A program made the position numbers and the translations under genes. From Promethearchaeota archaeon (GTDB lineage Archaea; Asgardarchaeota; Lokiarchaeia; Sigyniarchaeales; SOKP01), in assembly GCA_004524535.1 (NCBI GenBank), contig SDNY01000127.1, positions 1 to 10,395 on the forward strand: a DNA stretch of 10,395 bases, written 5' to 3'. Shown here piece by piece: positions 1-10,395 of this stretch. How positions within the stretch are numbered: position 1 is the stretch's first letter; each line of letters opens with the position of its first letter. The notes beneath the pieces were generated by a model. It made no database searches and was not told where the DNA came from. It saw only the letters and a program-made list of their open reading frames with translations.

Positions 1-264
1 CGGGGTTTTAGACTAATTAAATCAGGTAATGCAGATCTTATTATTTTAGATATAAATTTACCAGGGATGAATGGCGTAAAAATTTGTAGAGAATTGAGAA
101 AAATTCAAAAATATAAAAAAACACCTATTCTGGCATTTACGGCTTTAGATATGAATGGGGGGCAGGAACATATTCTAAATGCAGGATTTGATCTCTGTAT
201 TCCTAAAACAGCAAGTTTATCTTACATAGTAAAGATTATTAAAAAATATCTCCAAATAATTTAG
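1..264 (+). CDS. CheY-like response regulator receiver (REC) domain protein, 5'-truncated by the window edge
   Basis: Frame 1 is open from base 1 (RGFRLIKSGNADLIILDINLPGMNGVKICRELRK...). It has the phospho-acceptor motif DLIILD-INLPGMNG, the conserved Thr in 'PILAFTA' and a Lys after 'AGFDLCIP'. The ATG at 67 is the internal Met of PGMNG, not the start. Confidence 0.92.
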   Translation, partial: RGFRLIKSGNADLIILDINLPGMNGVKICRELRKIQKYKKTPILAFTALDMNGGQEHILNAGFDLCIPKTASLSYIVKIIKKYLQII

Positions 265-1118
265 CGTCTTTGCCTTTGTTGCCTTTGTTGCCTTTGTTGC
301 GGCGGTGTTTGTTCTTGACGATAGACAGGAATAATTTTAGATGTAAATTCTTCAAGCGTATAGGGAAATTCGTCCTCACTTGAAATCTTACCTAATTCAA
401 GCATAATTTGTCTTGCTAGAATCCAAAATACTAAACCTAACGCTTTCTTGCCTCGATTATTAGCCGGAACCGCAAGATCGATGCCAACAAGTGTGTCATC
501 GGTGTCAAATAAAGACACTACTGGTATCCTTGCTAATTGAGCTTCTCGTAAGATCACTTTATCGGCATGTGGGTCAATAATTACCACGACTGACGCGTCT
601 TTAACGTACGTATCTATAATTGGGTTGGTTAAACTGCCTGGAATGAACCGATTGACGATTGCTCTGCATCCAAGGACTTCGCAGAACTTCTTAACTGGTT
701 CTTTACCGTATCGTCGAACAGAACTAACAATTATTCTATCACTTCCTTCCTCAACGTATTTTGATAAAAATTTAGCCACTATTTTTAAACGTTTATCAGT
801 CTGTGTTAAATCTATGACATATAATCCATAATTAGTTTGTCGATAAATAAATCTTCGAGCATCTCCAGATAACAATTTAGTGCCAATATGAATTCCACAA
901 GATAAATAGAGTTGTTTTTGAGCCTCATCTTTATCAATTAATTTTTCCTCTAATTCAAGCTCTTTGTCCAAATCCTCAGTGTCAAGCAAATCCAGTTCTT
1001 CTTCAAGATCAATAAAATCATCCTCAACAAAATCGTCCACAAAGTCTAAATCAATTTTGTCATCTTTTTTCTCTTTTTCTTCTGTTGATTCAGTGTCCTT
1101 ACTTTTCTTTTTAGCCAA
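261..1118 (-). CDS. rps2: 30S ribosomal protein uS2, archaeal/eukaryotic (Sa/RPSA) type, with N- and C-terminal extensions
   Basis: Motifs GIHIGTK, GLYVIDL, RFIPGSLTNP, IIDPHAD, EAQLARIPVVSLFDTD and DLAVPANNRGKKALGLVFWILAR. TTG start preceded by an SD-like AAGGCGG. Confidence 0.97.
   Translation of the reverse strand: MAKKKSKDTESTEEKEKKDDKIDLDFVDDFVEDDFIDLEEELDLLDTEDLDKELELEEKLIDKDEAQKQLYLSCGIHIGTKLLSGDARRFIYRQTNYGLYVIDLTQTDKRLKIVAKFLSKYVEEGSDRIIVSSVRRYGKEPVKKFCEVLGCRAIVNRFIPGSLTNPIIDTYVKDASVVVIIDPHADKVILREAQLARIPVVSLFDTDDTLVGIDLAVPANNRGKKALGLVFWILARQIMLELGKISSEDEFPYTLEEFTSKIIPVYRQEQTPPQQRQQRQQRQRR
270..300. repeat. 9-bp tandem repeat (TTGCCTTTG x3.4) encoding the QQR repeats at the uS2 C-terminus
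   Basis: Three exact copies at 270-278, 279-287 and 288-296, plus a partial copy at 297-300. On the minus strand these read as QQRQQRQQRQ. Confidence 0.9.
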
Positions 1119-2558: not shown

Positions 2559-3812
2559 TTACAACACCTCACGAGGATCTGTAATTTTACCATAGATGGC
2601 AGAGGCAGTAACAGTAGCAGGAGATGCCAAATAAACTTGAGAACTGGCTGCACCCATCCTACCTACAAAATTTCGATTCGTCGAACTAATACATACTTCC
2701 CCCTCTCCTAATACACCCATATGCCCGCCAATACAAGCACCACAAGTAGAGTGAGTGACTACAGCACCGGCATTTATAAATATATCTAGTAAGCCTTCTT
2801 TCATGGCTGTTATATATACTTCTTTAGAAGCTGGTGTGATTATAAATCGAGTTTTTGGATTTATCGATTTTCCTTTTAGAATTTTCGCTGCTATCCTTAA
2901 ATCCTCGATTCTTCCATTTGTACAACTTCCAAGAAATGCTTGATCAATTTCAATACCTTCCACATTTTCAATTTCATCTGCATTTCCCGGACTGGAGGGT
3001 TTAGCCACCATTGGAATAATTTCTGATAAATTATATTCAAGAGTTTTTTCATAAATTGCTTCTTTATCAGGGTGAATAATATTATATTCTTCTTTACTAC
3101 GCTTTTGTATCCAACTTTCTAATTTATTATCAGATAAAAACACGCCAAATTTTGCCCCTGCTTCAACTACCATATTAGAGATTGTCATTCGTCCATCTAT
3201 TGAAAGAGAATCTATGCCATGAAATTCTAATGATTTATAGATTGCTCCTTTTGTTGTAATATCACCAATAATTTTTAGAATAATATCTTTTGACATAACT
3301 CCTTTATTTAGTTCCCCTACAAAATTTATTTTATATGATTCGGGAACTTTAAACCATAATTTACCAGTAGCAAAAACAACTGAAACATCAGTAGCTCCGA
3401 TACCAGTAGATAAACAATTAAACGCTCCATAAGTAGTTGTATGACTATCGGAGCCAACAATTAACATTCCTGGTCGTGAAAAACCCATTTCTGGTAGTAC
3501 TTGGTGGCAAATTCCTTTATCCATTCCTATATTATGAATAAAATTATATTTTTCGGCAAAAGCTCTACAGTCTTGATGCATTTGAGCTGCGGATATTGTG
3601 GGGGCCGGAACCCAATGATCTAATATAAAAAAGATTTTATTTGGATCCCAAACATAATCAATTCCAAGTTTTTCATATTCTTTATGAATTCTTCCTCCTA
3701 ATTGCTCGTGAACCATTATTAAATCAATATCACATTCAACAAACTGTCCGGGTGATATCTCTTTTAAATCCGAATGTTCTAATAATATTTTTTCTGCTAC
3801 TGTCTTGCTCAT
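2559..3812 (-). CDS. leuC: Isopropylmalate isomerase/homoaconitase-family large subunit (LeuC/HacA type, [4Fe-4S])
   Basis: KTVAEKIL, DHWVPA, GICHQVLPE, GSDSHTTTYGA, Fe-S ligands GSCTNGR and CGAC, and SSTNRNFVGRMG. The ATG at 3812 (MSKTVAEKI) is preferred over the ORF-track start at 3824. Confidence 0.92.
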   Translation of the reverse strand: MSKTVAEKILLEHSDLKEISPGQFVECDIDLIMVHEQLGGRIHKEYEKLGIDYVWDPNKIFFILDHWVPAPTISAAQMHQDCRAFAEKYNFIHNIGMDKGICHQVLPEMGFSRPGMLIVGSDSHTTTYGAFNCLSTGIGATDVSVVFATGKLWFKVPESYKINFVGELNKGVMSKDIILKIIGDITTKGAIYKSLEFHGIDSLSIDGRMTISNMVVEAGAKFGVFLSDNKLESWIQKRSKEEYNIIHPDKEAIYEKTLEYNLSEIIPMVAKPSSPGNADEIENVEGIEIDQAFLGSCTNGRIEDLRIAAKILKGKSINPKTRFIITPASKEVYITAMKEGLLDIFINAGAVVTHSTCGACIGGHMGVLGEGEVCISSTNRNFVGRMGAASSQVYLASPATVTASAIYGKITDPREVL

Positions 3813-3817
3813 TCTTT

Positions 3818-5101
3818 TTAACACACTATTTCGTGTTCTTCACTTAATAATTTATAATCTTCATCAAGCATTAAAATTACTCTTCGAGCAATGATGCATG
3901 CTTCTACTAAGATTTGAGGATCAACCTTATCTGGTGTATCAATTTCACTATGAGTATAAAATGCAGCATCTTTAGTAGAAATATCAACGGCACTAAAACT
4001 CCTTAAATGAAATGGAACAGAATCGGTATGTGCTCCTGTTGTTATATGAAAACCATGAAGTTCAACATTTTCCTCTGATGCTGCGTTTTCCAAATATTTA
4101 CTGAGAATTGGAGCAACTTTTTTACGAGGAATAAATCCGTAAGATTTTAAATACTCAAGTCTATTTCCTCTTTTGCGTTTTGCTGCTGAAACCATATCAA
4201 AATTTAATTGAAAGATCTTACCTTTAATGAATTGGTCTTCATGATTATTTACAAAAATTCTTGAGCCCATCGTTCCTAATTCTTCTGCAGAAAATTGGCA
4301 GAACCATATATTAAAATTTTCTAAGAGATTATCCTTAAAAAATCTACTTAATTCAAATACAATAGACATTCCAGAGGCGTTATCTAAAGCACCGGGGGAT
4401 TTATTTTGAGTATTGAGAAATATTAATAATAGATTTGAGAACGAAATTAAACCCGTTAATATCCAAATGCCAATTTGTAAGATTAAATAATTAAGCTCTA
4501 CAATGCAATAATAACAAAGCAGTGAAGCAATATAAAATCCTCCAAGAATAATTCCGCAAAATAACCATATTCGATAGGAAATAATTCTCCAGGCGGTTTT
4601 AAAGGTTTGAGATTTGGAATCAAGATGAGCAGATATTATAATATTACCTGCTTTTTCAATTGGCATAGATTTCGCGTTTAGTTTCACAAAAACATTTGTG
4701 GCTTGAATAGTTTTGCCGAAATATTCTCCCCAGAATCCTTTTTCTTCGGGATGCTTTAATCCTCTTATAATTAAAAAAACTATTAATGTCATCAATCCTA
4801 TTATAAAAAATGTAAAGAGGATGTTAAGGTATATAGCTAAAACAAAAACCAATAGAGCGTTTAAACTAATTATACCTATAAATTTAACAAGCGTCGTAGA
4901 GTAAAAATCGGAGAATTCAAATTTTTCTTTTATAATCTCATTCTCAGTATATCCTATTTCTTTAAATGTATCAACAGTCAACTTTACTGCTTCTTTCTCA
5001 CCATCACTTCCTACAAGTCGAGGAAAACTAAATTTTTGAACATTTTTATAAATTCTATCTTTACTATACCAATGATTATTAAGAGGAGCTTCTGTATTCA
5101 C
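3818..5101 (-). CDS. M28-family zinc metallopeptidase with two inserted transmembrane hairpins
   Basis: FPRLVGSDGE, ISAHLDS, PGALDNASG, SAEELGTMGS, LNFDMV, TDSVPF and YTHSEIDT, so the expected Zn ligands and catalytic Glu are present. Hydrophobic segments at about aa 71-112 and aa 179-229. GTG start. Confidence 0.88.
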   Translation of the reverse strand: MNTEAPLNNHWYSKDRIYKNVQKFSFPRLVGSDGEKEAVKLTVDTFKEIGYTENEIIKEKFEFSDFYSTTLVKFIGIISLNALLVFVLAIYLNILFTFFIIGLMTLIVFLIIRGLKHPEEKGFWGEYFGKTIQATNVFVKLNAKSMPIEKAGNIIISAHLDSKSQTFKTAWRIISYRIWLFCGIILGGFYIASLLCYYCIVELNYLILQIGIWILTGLISFSNLLLIFLNTQNKSPGALDNASGMSIVFELSRFFKDNLLENFNIWFCQFSAEELGTMGSRIFVNNHEDQFIKGKIFQLNFDMVSAAKRKRGNRLEYLKSYGFIPRKKVAPILSKYLENAASEENVELHGFHITTGAHTDSVPFHLRSFSAVDISTKDAAFYTHSEIDTPDKVDPQILVEACIIARRVILMLDEDYKLLSEEHEIVC

Positions 5102-5173
5102 AATTTATCTTAGTTCAATTAGGATTATTAAAGTTCAATCTTAAAACTAGAAATAAAACAAAGGATTAATTTC

Positions 5174-5785
5174 TTATTCTTTTAATTTATTAATTACAAT
5201 TTTCTGAATTTGTTTTTGTGTAAATTCAATAATATCGTCCGTATTTATTACAAAATACCGTTTTTTTTTCGCACGTTTTAAATAGAGATCCCTTACTTTA
5301 TCTAAAAAAGGGGTTTCTTCAAATTTTTCTAAAGCTCCAGACTTGCGCGCCAGAGAGATTCTAGGATCGATATCTAATATAATAGTTAAATCTGGTTGAC
5401 CAACAAACTTATTAAGTTCTTCTATCCAATCAATAGATATTTCATCAGATTGTACTGACTGATATATTATGGAAGATTCAAGATAACGATCTGATATGAC
5501 AATATATCCTTCGTCAAGTTTCTTCTTAATTTCATTATGATAATGGAGGTCTCTATCTGCAGCAAATAAAAGAGCATCTGTAGTTGGTGGAATACTATTA
5601 TCCTTCAAGAATTTTCTTAATATGACTCCAATTTCGCTTTTAGAAGGTTCTTGAGTTAAATGAACTTTAAGTTTTTCATTCTTTAAAAATCCCTCAAGTA
5701 GGCGGCTATGAGTGGTTGTACCGCTACCATCCAATCCTTCCAAGACTATAAATACAGATTTTTGAGTTAGATTCATTTTTTTCAT
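5174..5785 (-). CDS. tmk: Thymidylate kinase (dTMP kinase), P-loop variant
   Basis: FIVLEGLDGSGTTT, TQEP, LLFAADR, VISDRYLESSIIYQ, PDLTIILD and EKFE. The P-loop Lys is replaced by Thr. Confidence 0.9.
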   Translation of the reverse strand: MKKMNLTQKSVFIVLEGLDGSGTTTHSRLLEGFLKNEKLKVHLTQEPSKSEIGVILRKFLKDNSIPPTTDALLFAADRDLHYHNEIKKKLDEGYIVISDRYLESSIIYQSVQSDEISIDWIEELNKFVGQPDLTIILDIDPRISLARKSGALEKFEETPFLDKVRDLYLKRAKKKRYFVINTDDIIEFTQKQIQKIVINKLKE

Positions 5786-5891: not shown

Positions 5892-6260
5892 TTGACAAGC
5901 ACTACTCCAATGGGTTATTGTCCGCACTGTCAGCAGAACGTTTTACTACATAGAGAGCCAATTGATCCGATGTTAGCCATTATTTTGATCTGTTGTACAT
6001 TCGGAATTGGTTTTTTCATTTATTTAATTATATATTATTCAAAATCCGAAAACAGATGCGTTCATTGCGGTACACAAGTTACAGCATTACCAAACCAATA
6101 TTCTCAGACTATTAGCCAGTTGCCAAATCAACAACAAGCTCAATTTAGCCAAGTTAAGCTAATTGAATCTGATATAGTGAAATATTGTCATTTATGTGGA
6201 GGAAAATTAGATAAACATACCCAAAATTTTTGTCCTCATTGTGGTAGTAAAATAGATTGA
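5892..6260 (+). CDS. Small membrane protein: LITAF/BRI3-like CxxC-hydrophobic-CxxC domain, Gln-rich linker and C-terminal zinc ribbon
   Basis: CPHC, then a 42-aa spacer containing MLAIILICCTFGIGFFIYLIIYY, then CVHC. C-terminal CHLC...CPHC. TTG start (alternative ATG at 5910). Confidence 0.8.
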   Translation: MTSTTPMGYCPHCQQNVLLHREPIDPMLAIILICCTFGIGFFIYLIIYYSKSENRCVHCGTQVTALPNQYSQTISQLPNQQQAQFSQVKLIESDIVKYCHLCGGKLDKHTQNFCPHCGSKID

Positions 6261-6269
6261 TTTTTTTTT
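6261..6269 (+). terminator. Putative archaeal oligo(T) terminator
   Basis: A run of 9 T directly follows the TGA stop of 5892..6260. Confidence 0.55.
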
Positions 6270-6406
6270 CTATTATACACCAATTTTGATAATATATTTT
6301 TAAATATTATTCTAAATCGGTTCTATTTTATGGTAAAAATTGGACTCGAGATCATTTTAATATTAGCCATACTGCCTTTTATTTAATTACTAAAAATTCA
6401 AAATAA

Positions 6407-6412
6407 GAGGTA
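6407..6412 (+). promoter_or_regulatory. Shine-Dalgarno-like ribosome-binding site
   Basis: GAGGTA a few bases upstream of the TTG at 6419. Confidence 0.6.
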
Positions 6413-6418
6413 ATAAAT

Positions 6419-6760
6419 TTGGCATCATTAGGTTATTGTCCAAATTGTAAAAAAAACGTAGATAAAGAAAAAGGAAGTTTTAGCTTTTTGTTAGCGTTCA
6501 TTTTAGCTTTTACAGGTATAGGATTAGTCATATATATTTTATACTATATCGACCAAAAGCCAGAATATTGTGAGTTTTGCCATGCACTCTGTGAACCACC
6601 ACAATTAGAAAACAAATCTCAACAACCTAAAGAACTAGAAAATATGACTCCAAAATTAATAACTAATGAAAAAGTAAGATTTTGCTATAACTGTGGAACT
6701 GAAATAGAATATAGAGATGAAGCTAAAATCTGCGATTTTTGCGGAGATAATATAGTATAA
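6419..6760 (+). CDS. Paralogous small membrane protein: LITAF/BRI3-like domain and C-terminal zinc ribbon
   Basis: GYCPNC, then a 40-aa spacer containing FSFLLAFILAFTGIGLVIYILYY, then CEFC. C-terminal CYNC...CDFC. Aligns with the preceding ORF. Confidence 0.8.
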   Translation: MASLGYCPNCKKNVDKEKGSFSFLLAFILAFTGIGLVIYILYYIDQKPEYCEFCHALCEPPQLENKSQQPKELENMTPKLITNEKVRFCYNCGTEIEYRDEAKICDFCGDNIV

Positions 6761-6791: not shown

Positions 6792-8000
6792 TTATTTTTT
6801 ATTTAAGTTGTTCTTTATTATTTCTAAAATAGTTGACTCAACGGGTGTACATCCTTTAATAAAAGTACCATTTTCTCGTTGTTCATAAGTGCAATTTCCA
6901 ATTAAGAAAGTCTCATCATAAATATCTGATTGTTTTATTCCTTTTCCTATTGCTAAATTTAATGGATTTTCAGGTGTAAAATGTTTGTCAATAAAATCTT
7001 TGTTATTTTTCAATAAATTGAATATTGTGGATAGGCATGCAGAGCAGGAATCAATGTCAATTAAATTCACATTTTTATATTTAATGCTTATTGAACTTGG
7101 AGGAGGCTCTAAAGGTCTTATAAATTCTTGAATATTTTCAGGAATTGTTAAAATATCTTCATGGCTCTTTGGTGCATTTAATATCATATCTGATATCAGT
7201 TTCAAATGAGGAACATCTTCTAAAGACCATTCTGGCTGAGTTAATGCAAGGGCAATGATATCTGCTGCAAGGTAATCGGTAGATGCTATTATTGTGTCTA
7301 ATTTCACAGGATTTCCCGAAGAAGGTCCCATCCCTTCTTGAGCATATGATGCGTCTATTACTATTAAGTCAGGATGAAATATGTGAGCAAGATCTGCGAT
7401 TGCAATATCTAATTCTTTAATTTTCCTTATCGAATCTTTCAATTGGCTTATTACTTCGGGAGCTTGAAGATGATGTAAAGTAACTTTTTTTCTTTTATAG
7501 ATTAACCCTTTTAAATTTTTAAAACTTAGAGAAGCCCCACAGTGCATATGCATTTTTAAGACGGGAATTGATATTATAGAATCAATATCATTCCAGTAAC
7601 CGGTAACCTTGATTTTCTTTAGAATTTTTCCATTTGGTATATCTAATTCGATGGGAGGTTTATCATCTAAATCAATAAATTGAATATCGTCATCGTTCAA
7701 TAGATTATTATAGCCGGATTGCTCAAATGCCTTTCTTGTATCAGTATTTATTATAGGAGAGTCACCAATTAAAAATCGTGCCTTAAATTTTTGTTTTAAG
7801 TAATTAAAGATAGCAATTACAACTTCAGGATTTGTATTTATTCCTAAATAAGGATCATCTTCTCTGCCAACATTTGGTTTTAGTAAAACATTTTTTCCAT
7901 TTAAATCAGGAAGTTTCAACTGATCTAGAGCTGAATTTACTGCTATTATAATATCATCATTCCGTGCTATTGAAACAATAGGTTTTTCTCTTTTTAACAT
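6792..8000 (-). CDS. DUF362-domain protein with a C-terminal cysteine-motif (putative Fe-S) domain
   Basis: VLLKPN, TNPEVV, IGDSP, SIPVLKMHMHCGASLSFKNLKG, GMGPSSG and STDYLAAD. C-terminal CSAC...IGNC...GCTP. Confidence 0.85.
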   Translation of the reverse strand: MLKREKPIVSIARNDDIIIAVNSALDQLKLPDLNGKNVLLKPNVGREDDPYLGINTNPEVVIAIFNYLKQKFKARFLIGDSPIINTDTRKAFEQSGYNNLLNDDDIQFIDLDDKPPIELDIPNGKILKKIKVTGYWNDIDSIISIPVLKMHMHCGASLSFKNLKGLIYKRKKVTLHHLQAPEVISQLKDSIRKIKELDIAIADLAHIFHPDLIVIDASYAQEGMGPSSGNPVKLDTIIASTDYLAADIIALALTQPEWSLEDVPHLKLISDMILNAPKSHEDILTIPENIQEFIRPLEPPPSSISIKYKNVNLIDIDSCSACLSTIFNLLKNNKDFIDKHFTPENPLNLAIGKGIKQSDIYDETFLIGNCTYEQRENGTFIKGCTPVESTILEIIKNNLNKK

Positions 8001-8992: not shown

Positions 8993-10395
8993 TTATGGCT
9001 TGATTTTTGGTATCTCTAATATATGACCACATCTCGGGCAAATTTTATGCAATCGATATTTTTTCATACTACTGAAAAAGCTTGAACCAAGTATTCCTGC
9101 AGGCAATGTAAATAGTGCTACACCTCCAAATGCAAATAATACTAATAAAAAACGCCCCATGGTAGTGACGGGATATATATCTCCATACCCTACTGTGGTA
9201 TAAGTAATAATTCCCAACCACATAGCTTGAAAAATATTTCCAACTTTGCCAGGTTGGGCGGCACCTTCAACATAATAGAGAGCAGCCGAGCTAAATATAA
9301 GGTACAAAACACATATCAACATAGATGTAAAAAATATTTTTCTATTTTCTATAAAAATATCCCCTATTATATTAAATATATCAGTAAAATGACTAATTTT
9401 AAACACAACAATAAATCTTAACAATAGTATAAATTTTAATTCACCAGTGAATGCAAAAGCAGGAACTAGCATTGGTAAAAAGAGGATAATTATAAGTAAA
9501 TCGAGTATTGACAAAGGACGAGCTATAAATTTTAATCTTCCTTTTATGGGATGATGATATTTTGCTTCTTCAGAGGCAGTACAGGACCAAATTCTTAAGA
9601 TATATTCTAAACAAAAAATACTAAATGAGATATAGTAAAAAGGAATTAAAATAAAACTGAATTCTTGATATACCTGTGGATTTGATTCAAGTAGTACTGC
9701 AAATGCGTTAAGGGCGATTAATATAAAAAAGAAAAATGCAACAATTCTCGGTTTTAATTCTGTTGGATATTTATTTTCAAGGGCATTAAAAACAAAATGT
9801 TTTCTGCGTTGATTTGGTGTTAGCTTATCTAAATCAATAACAACTTCGAGGGATTTTGTTTCATCAATTAATGTTTTTTTTCTTGTTCTTCTTATATCTT
9901 TTAAAGACTTGCTTTCTTCAAATTCCACGTTACAATTTGGACAAAAATCATAATGTGGATATCTTTCTTGAGTTTCATCTATAAAACCACTGGCAATGAC
10001 ACTTGCAGGCAATAAAAAGATAGTTATACCAAGAAGCGATACAATTATTGCAATAATCTTACCCATGGGAGTAATAGGAATAAGATCTCCGAAACCAATC
10101 GTGAATAAAGTTATCCCTGCCCAATATAATGCGTTAAAGAACGTTCTAAATTTTTCCGGTTGAGCTTTATGTTCTGCAATATAAAGAAAAATTGCAGCTA
10201 CAAACATAATAACTAAAGATAAAATGAGTGTCATTAATAATTCTTCTCTTTTTCTTTTAATCACTACCCAGATAATCTCAAATGAAGTAAAGTATCTTTT
10301 TAATTTTAGGAGCACAAATAAGCGTAATAATTGTAACGCTTTAGCGAGAAAGATATTCTCGATTGAAAATAATATTACTGAGATATAAATTATAG
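8993..10395 (-). CDS. Two-repeat voltage-gated-type potassium channel (tandem ion-transport domains), 5'-truncated by the window edge
   Basis: The frame stays open past 10315 to the window end (IIYISVILFSIENIFLAKALQLLRLFVLLKLKRY, an S3-S4-like segment). Pore 1 filter TIGFGD at 10085-10102. A complete second S1-S6 repeat follows, with EYILRIW, ILDLL and filter TVGYGD at 9179-9196. A CxxC follows each repeat. Confidence 0.92.
   Translation of the reverse strand, partial: IIYISVILFSIENIFLAKALQLLRLFVLLKLKRYFTSFEIIWVVIKRKREELLMTLILSLVIMFVAAIFLYIAEHKAQPEKFRTFFNALYWAGITLFTIGFGDLIPITPMGKIIAIIVSLLGITIFLLPASVIASGFIDETQERYPHYDFCPNCNVEFEESKSLKDIRRTRKKTLIDETKSLEVVIDLDKLTPNQRRKHFVFNALENKYPTELKPRIVAFFFFILIALNAFAVLLESNPQVYQEFSFILIPFYYISFSIFCLEYILRIWSCTASEEAKYHHPIKGRLKFIARPLSILDLLIIILFLPMLVPAFAFTGELKFILLLRFIVVFKISHFTDIFNIIGDIFIENRKIFFTSMLICVLYLIFSSAALYYVEGAAQPGKVGNIFQAMWLGIITYTTVGYGDIYPVTTMGRFLLVLFAFGGVALFTLPAGILGSSFFSSMKKYRLHKICPRCGHILEIPKIKP

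Follow-up and report, generated by a model that had tools for sequence, protein, structure and literature searches.

Tandem genes for LITAF-like zinc-ribbon proteins, candidate membrane hairpins, in a Lokiarchaeia-labelled archaeal lineage

Two paralogous genes under purifying selection

Positions 5,892 to 6,760 of SDNY01000127.1, contig C82 of the 3.66-Mb, 99% complete genome of a Promethearchaeota archaeon (GCA_004524535.1), carry two adjacent open reading frames, ORF1 and ORF2, on the forward strand. The window, i.e. the whole stretch of DNA that was analysed, comprises 10,395 nucleotides. An original prediction made from the sequence alone had described the two ORFs as a tandem pair of zinc-clamped membrane-hairpin proteins resembling the eukaryotic proteins LITAF and BRI3. 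ORF1 and ORF2 share 31% identity over 118 columns (BLASTP, E = 6e-14), a similarity beyond chance. Both contain a GYCPxCxxNV motif, a hydrophobic stretch with T-x-GIG and IY..YY, and a second CxxC, followed by a polar linker rich in Q, P, N and E and a C-terminal CxxC-x(11-12)-CxxC. The CxxC motifs of the N-terminal domain (N-domain) are separated by 42 residues in ORF1 and 40 in ORF2, and the uncharged cores between them are 25 and 26 residues long. The features of the two genes are as follows.

5892-6260, forward strand: ORF1 coding sequence, 122 amino acids, TTG start, TGA stop
5916-6083, forward strand: ORF1 N-terminal LITAF-like split zinc-ribbon domain, matching the Pfam model PF10601, with invariant cysteines
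5919-5930 and 6057-6068, forward strand: first (C10/C13) and second (C56/C59) knuckles of this domain
5967-6041, forward strand: ORF1 hydrophobic segment, residues 26-50, predicted to form two short helices with a break at T36-F37-G38
6081-6182, forward strand: ORF1 polar linker rich in Q, P and N, predicted disordered (predicted local distance difference test, pLDDT, below 50 at residues 69-94)
6183-6251, forward strand: ORF1 C-terminal Cys4 zinc ribbon, C99/C102/C114/C117, with a match to PF13240 at residues 98-120
6419-6760, forward strand: ORF2 coding sequence, 113 amino acids, TTG start, TAA stop
6434-6586, forward strand: ORF2 N-terminal LITAF-like domain, C7/C10 and C51/C54, matching PF10601, with residues invariant in alignment A7 of ORF2-type orthologs
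6473-6550, forward strand: ORF2 hydrophobic residues 19-44
6683-6751, forward strand: ORF2 C-terminal Cys4 zinc ribbon, C89/C92/C105/C108, cysteines invariant in alignment A7, with generic zinc-ribbon matches

Scanning one representative genome of each prokaryotic species for the sequence pattern retrieved orthologs of ORF1 at 60 loci. Two to four adjacent family genes are present at 58 of these loci, giving 155 ORFs in total, and two further CxxC motifs lie downstream of the N-domain in 153 of them. The four cysteines of the N-domain are invariant, both in an alignment of 91 sequences (A3) and in an alignment of 124 sequences. In the central G-x-G, one glycine is at least 90% conserved in the 91-sequence alignment, and both (G38 and G40 of ORF1) are in the 124-sequence alignment. 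The linker, on the other hand, varies in length and sequence among ORF1 orthologs. Comparison with the nearest relative (locus L009) gives a ratio of nonsynonymous to synonymous substitution rates (dN/dS) of 0.20 for ORF1, and of 0.16 for ORF2. With locus L010, for which dS is saturated, the values are 0.17 and 0.22 respectively. The TTG start codon of ORF1 is shared with L009; ATG occupies the equivalent position in 52 of the 61 genes of the ORF1 type, which supports the assigned start. ORF1 and ORF2 are thus real paralogous genes under purifying selection. The coordinates, the motifs, the identity between the two proteins, the ortholog loci and the dN/dS values all bear out the pair of genes, with its shared features, as first described.

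Profile matches to LITAF and BRI3

The likeness to LITAF was judged with the Pfam model PF10601 (zf-LITAF-like, length 70, gathering cut-off 23.8 bits), which we take to be built chiefly on eukaryotic sequences. ORF1 matches this model with a score of 19.8 bits (E = 9e-4), its residues 9-63 aligning to profile positions 7-66 across both knuckles and the hydrophobic segment. The ORF2 match scores 16.5 bits (E = 0.0099; residues 6-56, profile positions 7-64). Neither window protein aligns to profile positions 1-6, a difference from the LITAF model. Scores of 19.7 bits for ORF1 and 17.7 bits for ORF2 were obtained in a six-frame search, and PF10601 is the top family (21.1 bits) for the ORF1 N-domain alone. 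At E <= 0.01, the model matches 34 of the 44 domains of the ORF1 and ORF2 types, with a best E-value of 1.4e-5, and 85 of the 124 full-length family members.

Stronger matches were observed with family members located elsewhere in the genomes. All ten domains of unlinked paralogs that were compared match PF10601 (best score 33.3 bits), and the paralogs of related genomes reach 31.9-33.3 bits. None of 14 control genomes gave a match above the cut-off. Two unlinked paralogs are encoded in the genome of the window itself. The first (G000:C131:331-780, locus L001, reverse strand) is a protein of 149 amino acids with the same architecture, including a K/E-rich linker and a Cys4 ribbon, and its score of 25.3 bits exceeds the cut-off. 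The second (G000:C98, L003:1429-1692, reverse strand) has 87 amino acids, no C-terminal ribbon and a score of 17.9 bits. These proteins exemplify the two types of unlinked paralog, a minimal type of 73-90 amino acids and a longer type of 143-160 amino acids. Both types share the N-domain of ORF1 and ORF2, and the longer one also ends in a Cys4 ribbon. Unlike the window proteins, the unlinked paralogs pass the PF10601 cut-off (24-33 bits) and have Lys-rich flanks, and the short type has no C-terminal ribbon. Comparison of the alignment of the window type (A6) with that of the cut-off-passing paralogs (A5) using hhalign gave a probability of 99.1% (E = 5.9e-19, 59 columns). Membership of the window proteins in PF10601 is therefore only a matter of transitive homology, because the paralogs pass the cut-off and are homologous to the window type. 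Judged from these alignments, ORF1 and ORF2 are divergent representatives of a family in which other proteins do reach the Pfam cut-off.

The arrangement characteristic of LITAF, two CxxC motifs flanking a hydrophobic region of about 22 residues, is found in both ORF1 and ORF2. As in LITAF and CDIP1, a CxxC knuckle is followed by a short β-hairpin, a hydrophobic region of about 22-25 residues and a second CxxC, and the profile matches span all these elements. However, the LITAF motif includes a His two residues before the second CxxC, and this His is missing from ORF1 and ORF2. The context of the domain also differs. In LITAF and CDIP1 it is C-terminal, behind a region that is rich in proline and carries PPxY and P(S/T)AP motifs; in ORF1 and ORF2 it is N-terminal, and both the region and the motifs are missing. 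The architecture of the whole protein is thus not that of LITAF. Moreover, the archaeal proteins add a C-terminal Cys4 ribbon, and their host is a prokaryote.

The likeness to BRI3 (PF10164, cut-off 25.9 bits) is less marked. At E <= 0.01, this model matches 34 of the 124 full-length members (best E-value 4.7e-5) and 14 of the 44 window-type domains, and all these matches lie below the cut-off, so that none of the proteins qualifies as a BRI3 family member. PF10164 is absent from the complete set of 19 families matched by ORF2, and it is not among the ORF1 matches listed (25 of 57 families at E <= 10). Of the double comparison made in the original prediction, the LITAF part is upheld through PF10601; the BRI3 part is weak, with sub-threshold matches in part of the family and none for ORF2.

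The C-terminal module is a more ordinary one. PF13240 (cut-off 25 bits) scores 24.8 bits with ORF1 and 15.8 bits with ORF2, a CxxC-x(10-13)-CxxC motif is present in both proteins, and 116 of the 124 members match at E <= 0.01 (best E-value 1.1e-10). The Pfam DZR model (PF12773) also matches ORF1, at residues 10-118, where it merely bridges the first and last CxxC. The C-terminal Cys4 module matches generic zinc-ribbon models such as PF12773 and PF13240, but their names take no account of the hydrophobic hairpin predicted within the first ribbon. In public annotation, family members appear as 'zinc-ribbon domain-containing protein'. The C-terminal ribbon would be the likely partner-binding module.

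Predicted fold and membrane topology

PMC5095921 and PMC5142333 describe LITAF as a monotopic protein whose hydrophobic region of 22 residues is flanked by two Cys-rich regions, which make up a zinc finger, and a role in membrane curvature is reported in PMC8353527. The zinc-clamped, non-spanning insertion shown for LITAF in the former two sources is predicted here for the archaeal proteins. We consider it probable, with some reserve, that ORF1 and ORF2 are paralogs of a lineage-specific, multi-copy family of monotopic anchors or adaptors, each made of a LITAF-like zinc-clamped hairpin and a tethered cytosolic ribbon.

According to this model, the first ~65 residues would constitute the LITAF-like domain, in which the two CxxC knuckles, ~42 residues apart, would hold one zinc ion. 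The knuckles held together in this way would force the hydrophobic stretch of ~25 residues back into a short helix-turn-helix hairpin, with its turn at the conserved T-x-G-x-G. The hairpin would enter the cytoplasmic leaflet without crossing the membrane, and the second zinc ribbon, an ordinary Cys4 one, would be held in the cytoplasm by the disordered polar linker. The proteins would then act as monotopic membrane anchors or adaptors, possibly as curvature wedges like those reported for LITAF, and each would be produced from its own transcription unit.

The AlphaFold2 model of the N-domain, calculated with 91 sequences, has a mean pLDDT of 86.6. In domain numbering, it comprises strands at residues 2-5 and 10-15, helices at residues 21-31 and 34-45, and short strands at the second knuckle. 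The model of full-length ORF1 shows the same pattern, with helices at residues 26-35 and 39-50, and a disordered linker at residues 69-94. The two predicted helices of the domain model, of 11 and 12 residues, would each be too short to cross a bilayer and are broken at the T-x-G-x-G motif; a re-entrant hairpin would therefore fit better than a single spanning helix. Among 158 family members, the spacing between the two CxxC motifs is 40-47 residues, a GxG is located about midway along the hydrophobic core in 127, and Lys or Arg is found on both flanks of the core in 156. Mean-field direct coupling analysis (DCA) was applied to 361 unique domain sequences (effective number of sequences, Meff, 175), and the top 30 pairs not involving Cys were scored. 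The first-ranked pair, 3-14, falls within the N-terminal hairpin. Couplings between the N-terminal half of the ribbon and the surroundings of the second knuckle account for 9 of the top 30 pairs, compared to 3.98 expected (p = 0.012). The AlphaFold2 models, the conserved GxG and charged flanks, and the DCA data favour a zinc-clamped hairpin but do not prove it. The LITAF-like architecture put forward originally thus gains support from the PF10601 alignment, the paralogs passing the cut-off, the hhalign comparison and the predicted secondary structure.

Several observations weigh against this interpretation. Both ORF1 and ORF2 score below the PF10601 cut-off. An uncharged core of 25 residues could span a bilayer, and the two-residue break between the predicted helices could represent a bend within a single helix that crosses the membrane. 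The enrichment of couplings between the ribbon halves is modest and can be inflated by subfamily structure, and couplings between the two helices (5 of the top 30 pairs, 3.46 expected) are not significant. Foldseek searches with the domain model found nothing at E <= 0.001 in BFVD or the PDB; the LITAF protein of Singapore grouper iridovirus ranked third (template modelling score, TM, 0.42), with a non-significant E-value of 2.6. The full-length model gave one BFVD match at E = 4.7e-4, to an unnamed protein, in a search that is uninformative because of the flexible linker. A profile search of PDB sequences retrieved no relative, and thus no solved LITAF-like structure for comparison.

Some of these points would also suit ordinary bitopic proteins, in which one kinked helix would span the membrane with the N-terminal CxxC outside and the second CxxC and the ribbon inside, the likeness to LITAF then reflecting composition and two generic CxxC motifs. 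The uncharged core would suffice for this purpose in 157 of the 158 members (22-30 residues, mode 25; 18 residues in the remaining one), and the net charge of the C-terminal flank (+1.18) is higher than that of the N-terminal flank (+0.54). The sub-threshold Pfam scores and the lack of a significant structural match point the same way. However, such a topology would leave a lone extracellular CxxC without partner ligands, yet all four cysteines are invariant. Composition alone fits poorly with a PF10601 match that covers the two knuckles together with a spacer of the length seen in LITAF, and a single helix fits poorly with a prediction of two helices (11 and 12 residues) that are separated at a nearly invariant Gly. 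The couplings between ribbon halves and the basic residues on both flanks of nearly all cores also speak against it. We therefore regard a bitopic arrangement as unlikely, though credible enough to be weighed seriously, and retain the zinc-clamped hairpin as the preferred model.

Genomic setting, distribution and origin of the family

The immediate surroundings of ORF1 and ORF2 consist of the following elements.

5174-5785, reverse strand: tmk, upstream flank of ORF1
6261-6269, forward strand: run of nine T straight after the ORF1 stop, a possible archaeal terminator as judged from sequence
6405-6411, forward strand: AAGAGGT, a putative Shine-Dalgarno-like motif 7 nucleotides upstream of the ORF2 TTG
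6792-8000, reverse strand: DUF362 gene, downstream flank of ORF2

Because of the nine-T run that follows the ORF1 stop, each of the two genes probably has its own transcript. Metatranscriptome contigs from two runs belonging to two studies (wetland and hydrothermal vent) match positions 6385-6597, i.e. the start and N-domain of ORF2, with 90-99% identity. These contigs make up a small share and DNA carry-over is possible, so that they provide a weak hint rather than proof of transcription. None of the contigs of these runs falls on ORF1, to which we attach no weight.

The other genes of the window encode ribosomal protein uS2, an HD-domain protein, the large and small subunits of an aconitase-family enzyme, an M28 peptidase and an ion channel, in addition to tmk, the DUF362 gene and aroE. 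All these neighbours are housekeeping genes, and neither an integrase nor any other mobile gene is present in the window. In the uS2 gene (261-1118, reverse strand), the Pfam S2 domain begins at residue 72, being preceded by ~70 acidic, D/E/L-rich residues, and the protein ends in a Q/R-rich tail. The ion channel gene (8993-10315, reverse strand), whose open frame continues to the end of the window, encodes 440 amino acids with an Ion_trans_2 domain (34-109) and an Ion_trans domain (191-415). Two pore-like motifs, GFGD and GYGD, are present, and CxxC motifs occur after the first module and at the C-terminus.

Both tmk and aroE are seen at 50 loci, and at all 50 the family array is situated between them. 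Four-gene arrays were found at loci L013, L015, L018, L019, L020, L064 and L065 (about positions 3500-5400 in each locus). They include an 'upstream' subtype (…YC.NCEKE…KPKRKS…) located between tmk and the gene of the ORF1 type. The window has no such gene at this place, the gap between tmk and ORF1 being just 106 base pairs.

Distribution was surveyed with the domain profile (E <= 1e-5) in 151 genomes sampled evenly across the phylum, which fall into 27 family-level groups. The family was found in all 25 other genomes of the window's own group and in none of the 125 sampled genomes of the 26 other groups, including the two of the same order. Positive genomes contain 1-8 matches. The PF10601 model gave the same picture over this sample, with matches in 21 of the 25 genomes as opposed to 0 of the 125, and scores above the cut-off in 20 of the 151. 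The taxonomic survey and paralog counts called for originally thus point to a multi-copy family that was found, among the sampled genomes, in one family-level group only.

Relatives in public databases bear Asgard labels, for the most part Promethearchaeota, and the NCBI labels of some positives (Thor-, Odin-, Hod- and Hermodarchaeota) would suggest an Asgard-wide family. This possibility was rejected because all positives were placed in one family-level group and because synteny and flanking-gene identity are uniform; for the flanking Tmk the identity is 62-91%.

Loci L010, L016, L018 and L021, from metagenome-assembled genomes whose public titles read Hermod-, Thor-, Hod- and Odinarchaeota, have the gene order of the window and flanking proteins that are 60-80% identical. 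These labels look inconsistent with the relatedness of the sequences.

More distant relatives were detected in metagenomic data. A profile search of 1.84 billion representatives retrieved 757 clusters at E <= 0.001, 117 of them at E <= 1e-10. The weaker relatives among the matches listed are minimal proteins of 55-100 amino acids, together with some proteins in which the domain is C-terminal; with PF10601 most of these distant relatives are sub-threshold and one passes. Two metagenomic homologs, P0244 (E = 4.1e-10) and P0256 (E = 1.2e-9), were recovered with the archaeal domain profile. Relatives of P0244 and P0256 occur in IMG/VR contigs (L081-L087) beside genes for major head, portal, minor head, major tail and tape-measure proteins; the minimal genes either follow the major head gene or are flanked by the two head genes, minor and major, or by those for the major tail and tape-measure proteins. 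The tailed-phage proteins resemble ORF1 and ORF2 in their core, which contains FNW/FS, the central G-x-G, Y..YY and CPxC. They differ in their length (55-140 amino acids), in lacking a Cys4 ribbon, in their location inside head and tail modules and in their sub-threshold PF10601 scores of 19-21 bits. The caveat that similar small domains occur elsewhere has thus proved well founded. A homology search with the distant minimal proteins gave nine hits without taxonomic information. A tblastn search of GenBank phages with P0256 found no match, no relative of P0254 was confirmed in viral contigs, and PHROGs contained no family matching the N-domain, its weak matches being mostly to the C-terminal ribbon. 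The nearest ESM-Atlas clusters, which serve as leads only, are mostly viral or bacterial, and none is listed as eukaryotic.

Two other metagenomic proteins, P0188 and P0223, carry two LITAF-like units each, i.e. an internal duplication.

These relatives raise the possibility that viruses or other mobile elements were the source of the family, with later expansion in this lineage, and that its role is not a housekeeping one but a virus-related one at the membrane, such as exclusion or the remodelling of the envelope or membrane. The narrow distribution with several matches per genome, the phage structural genes beside the relatives of P0244 and P0256, and the mostly viral nature of the nearest ESM-Atlas clusters are in keeping with such an origin. 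On the other hand, the array occupies a fixed chromosomal place between tmk and aroE, the window contains no mobile gene, selection is purifying as for host genes, and PHROGs has no family for the N-domain. We consider viral acquisition quite improbable.

The original prediction also linked the two proteins to eukaryote-like membrane sorting through the endosomal sorting complexes required for transport (ESCRT) and ubiquitin, and raised their candidacy as eukaryotic signature proteins. They would then be direct archaeal forerunners of LITAF and CDIP1, which have an endosomal role with ESCRT-I and NEDD4-type ligases, and would work with the Asgard ESCRT and ubiquitin systems in sorting. In favour of this view are the match to the Pfam LITAF model, presumably a chiefly eukaryotic one, and an Asgard host with two genes of the Snf7 family. 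Moreover, LITAF domains are described as eukaryotic in PMC5142333 and PMC5095921. The absence of the late-domain motifs PPxY and PSAP from ORF1 and ORF2, already remarked upon in the prediction, is confirmed, and it extends to almost the whole family: of 411 members, 3 contain PPxY and 2 contain P[ST]AP. The two Snf7-family genes are located elsewhere, on contigs C37 and C158, and no ESCRT or ubiquitin gene is found near ORF1 and ORF2, whose neighbours are housekeeping genes. The proposed link to sorting is thus not sustained. The narrow distribution and the scarcity of ESCRT-related motifs argue against listing the family as an Asgard-wide eukaryotic signature. With the domain N-terminal instead of C-terminal, minimal homologs encoded by tailed phages, nearest ESM-Atlas clusters that are viral and bacterial, and presence in a single one of the 27 sampled groups, signature-protein status is very improbable.

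The model of a lineage-specific family of zinc-clamped monotopic hairpins is the one that we retain. The recognition of its LITAF likeness is not in itself new, because automatic annotation already labels some members 'LITAF-like zinc ribbon' (precomputed Pfam matches; names of Promethearchaeota clusters in the ESM Atlas). The novelty lies in the position of the LITAF-like domain and the architecture around it, in its prokaryotic host lineage and in its phage relatives. A literature search, beyond whose reach lay the supplementary tables of Asgard signature proteins, found no link between LITAF and Asgard archaea, and no paper among the matches listed for LITAF with archaea or prokaryotes has a prokaryotic LITAF domain as its subject. 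In PMC5142333 and PMC5095921 the domain is treated as a eukaryotic feature; here, a whole archaeal lineage has several LITAF-like copies, and tailed phages have minimal versions. The archaeal proteins offer a small and tractable prokaryotic model for a rare mode of membrane anchoring, the proposed zinc-clamped hairpin, and they bring the origin of a domain linked to human disease within reach of a phylogenetic test.

As a tentative and distinctly unlikely extension, the zinc-clamped hairpin of LITAF and CDIP1, perhaps also of BRI3, may not have been invented by eukaryotes but belong to an ancient superfamily of very small monotopic proteins of prokaryotes and viruses. The lineage studied here, labelled Lokiarchaeia, would then contain those cellular prokaryotic members that are closest to the eukaryotic domain, and an Asgard ancestor or its viruses would be the source from which eukaryotes obtained it. 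If this were true, the archaeal proteins, of which each genome has 1-8 copies, would serve as wedges that generate curvature in archaea noted for their membrane protrusions.

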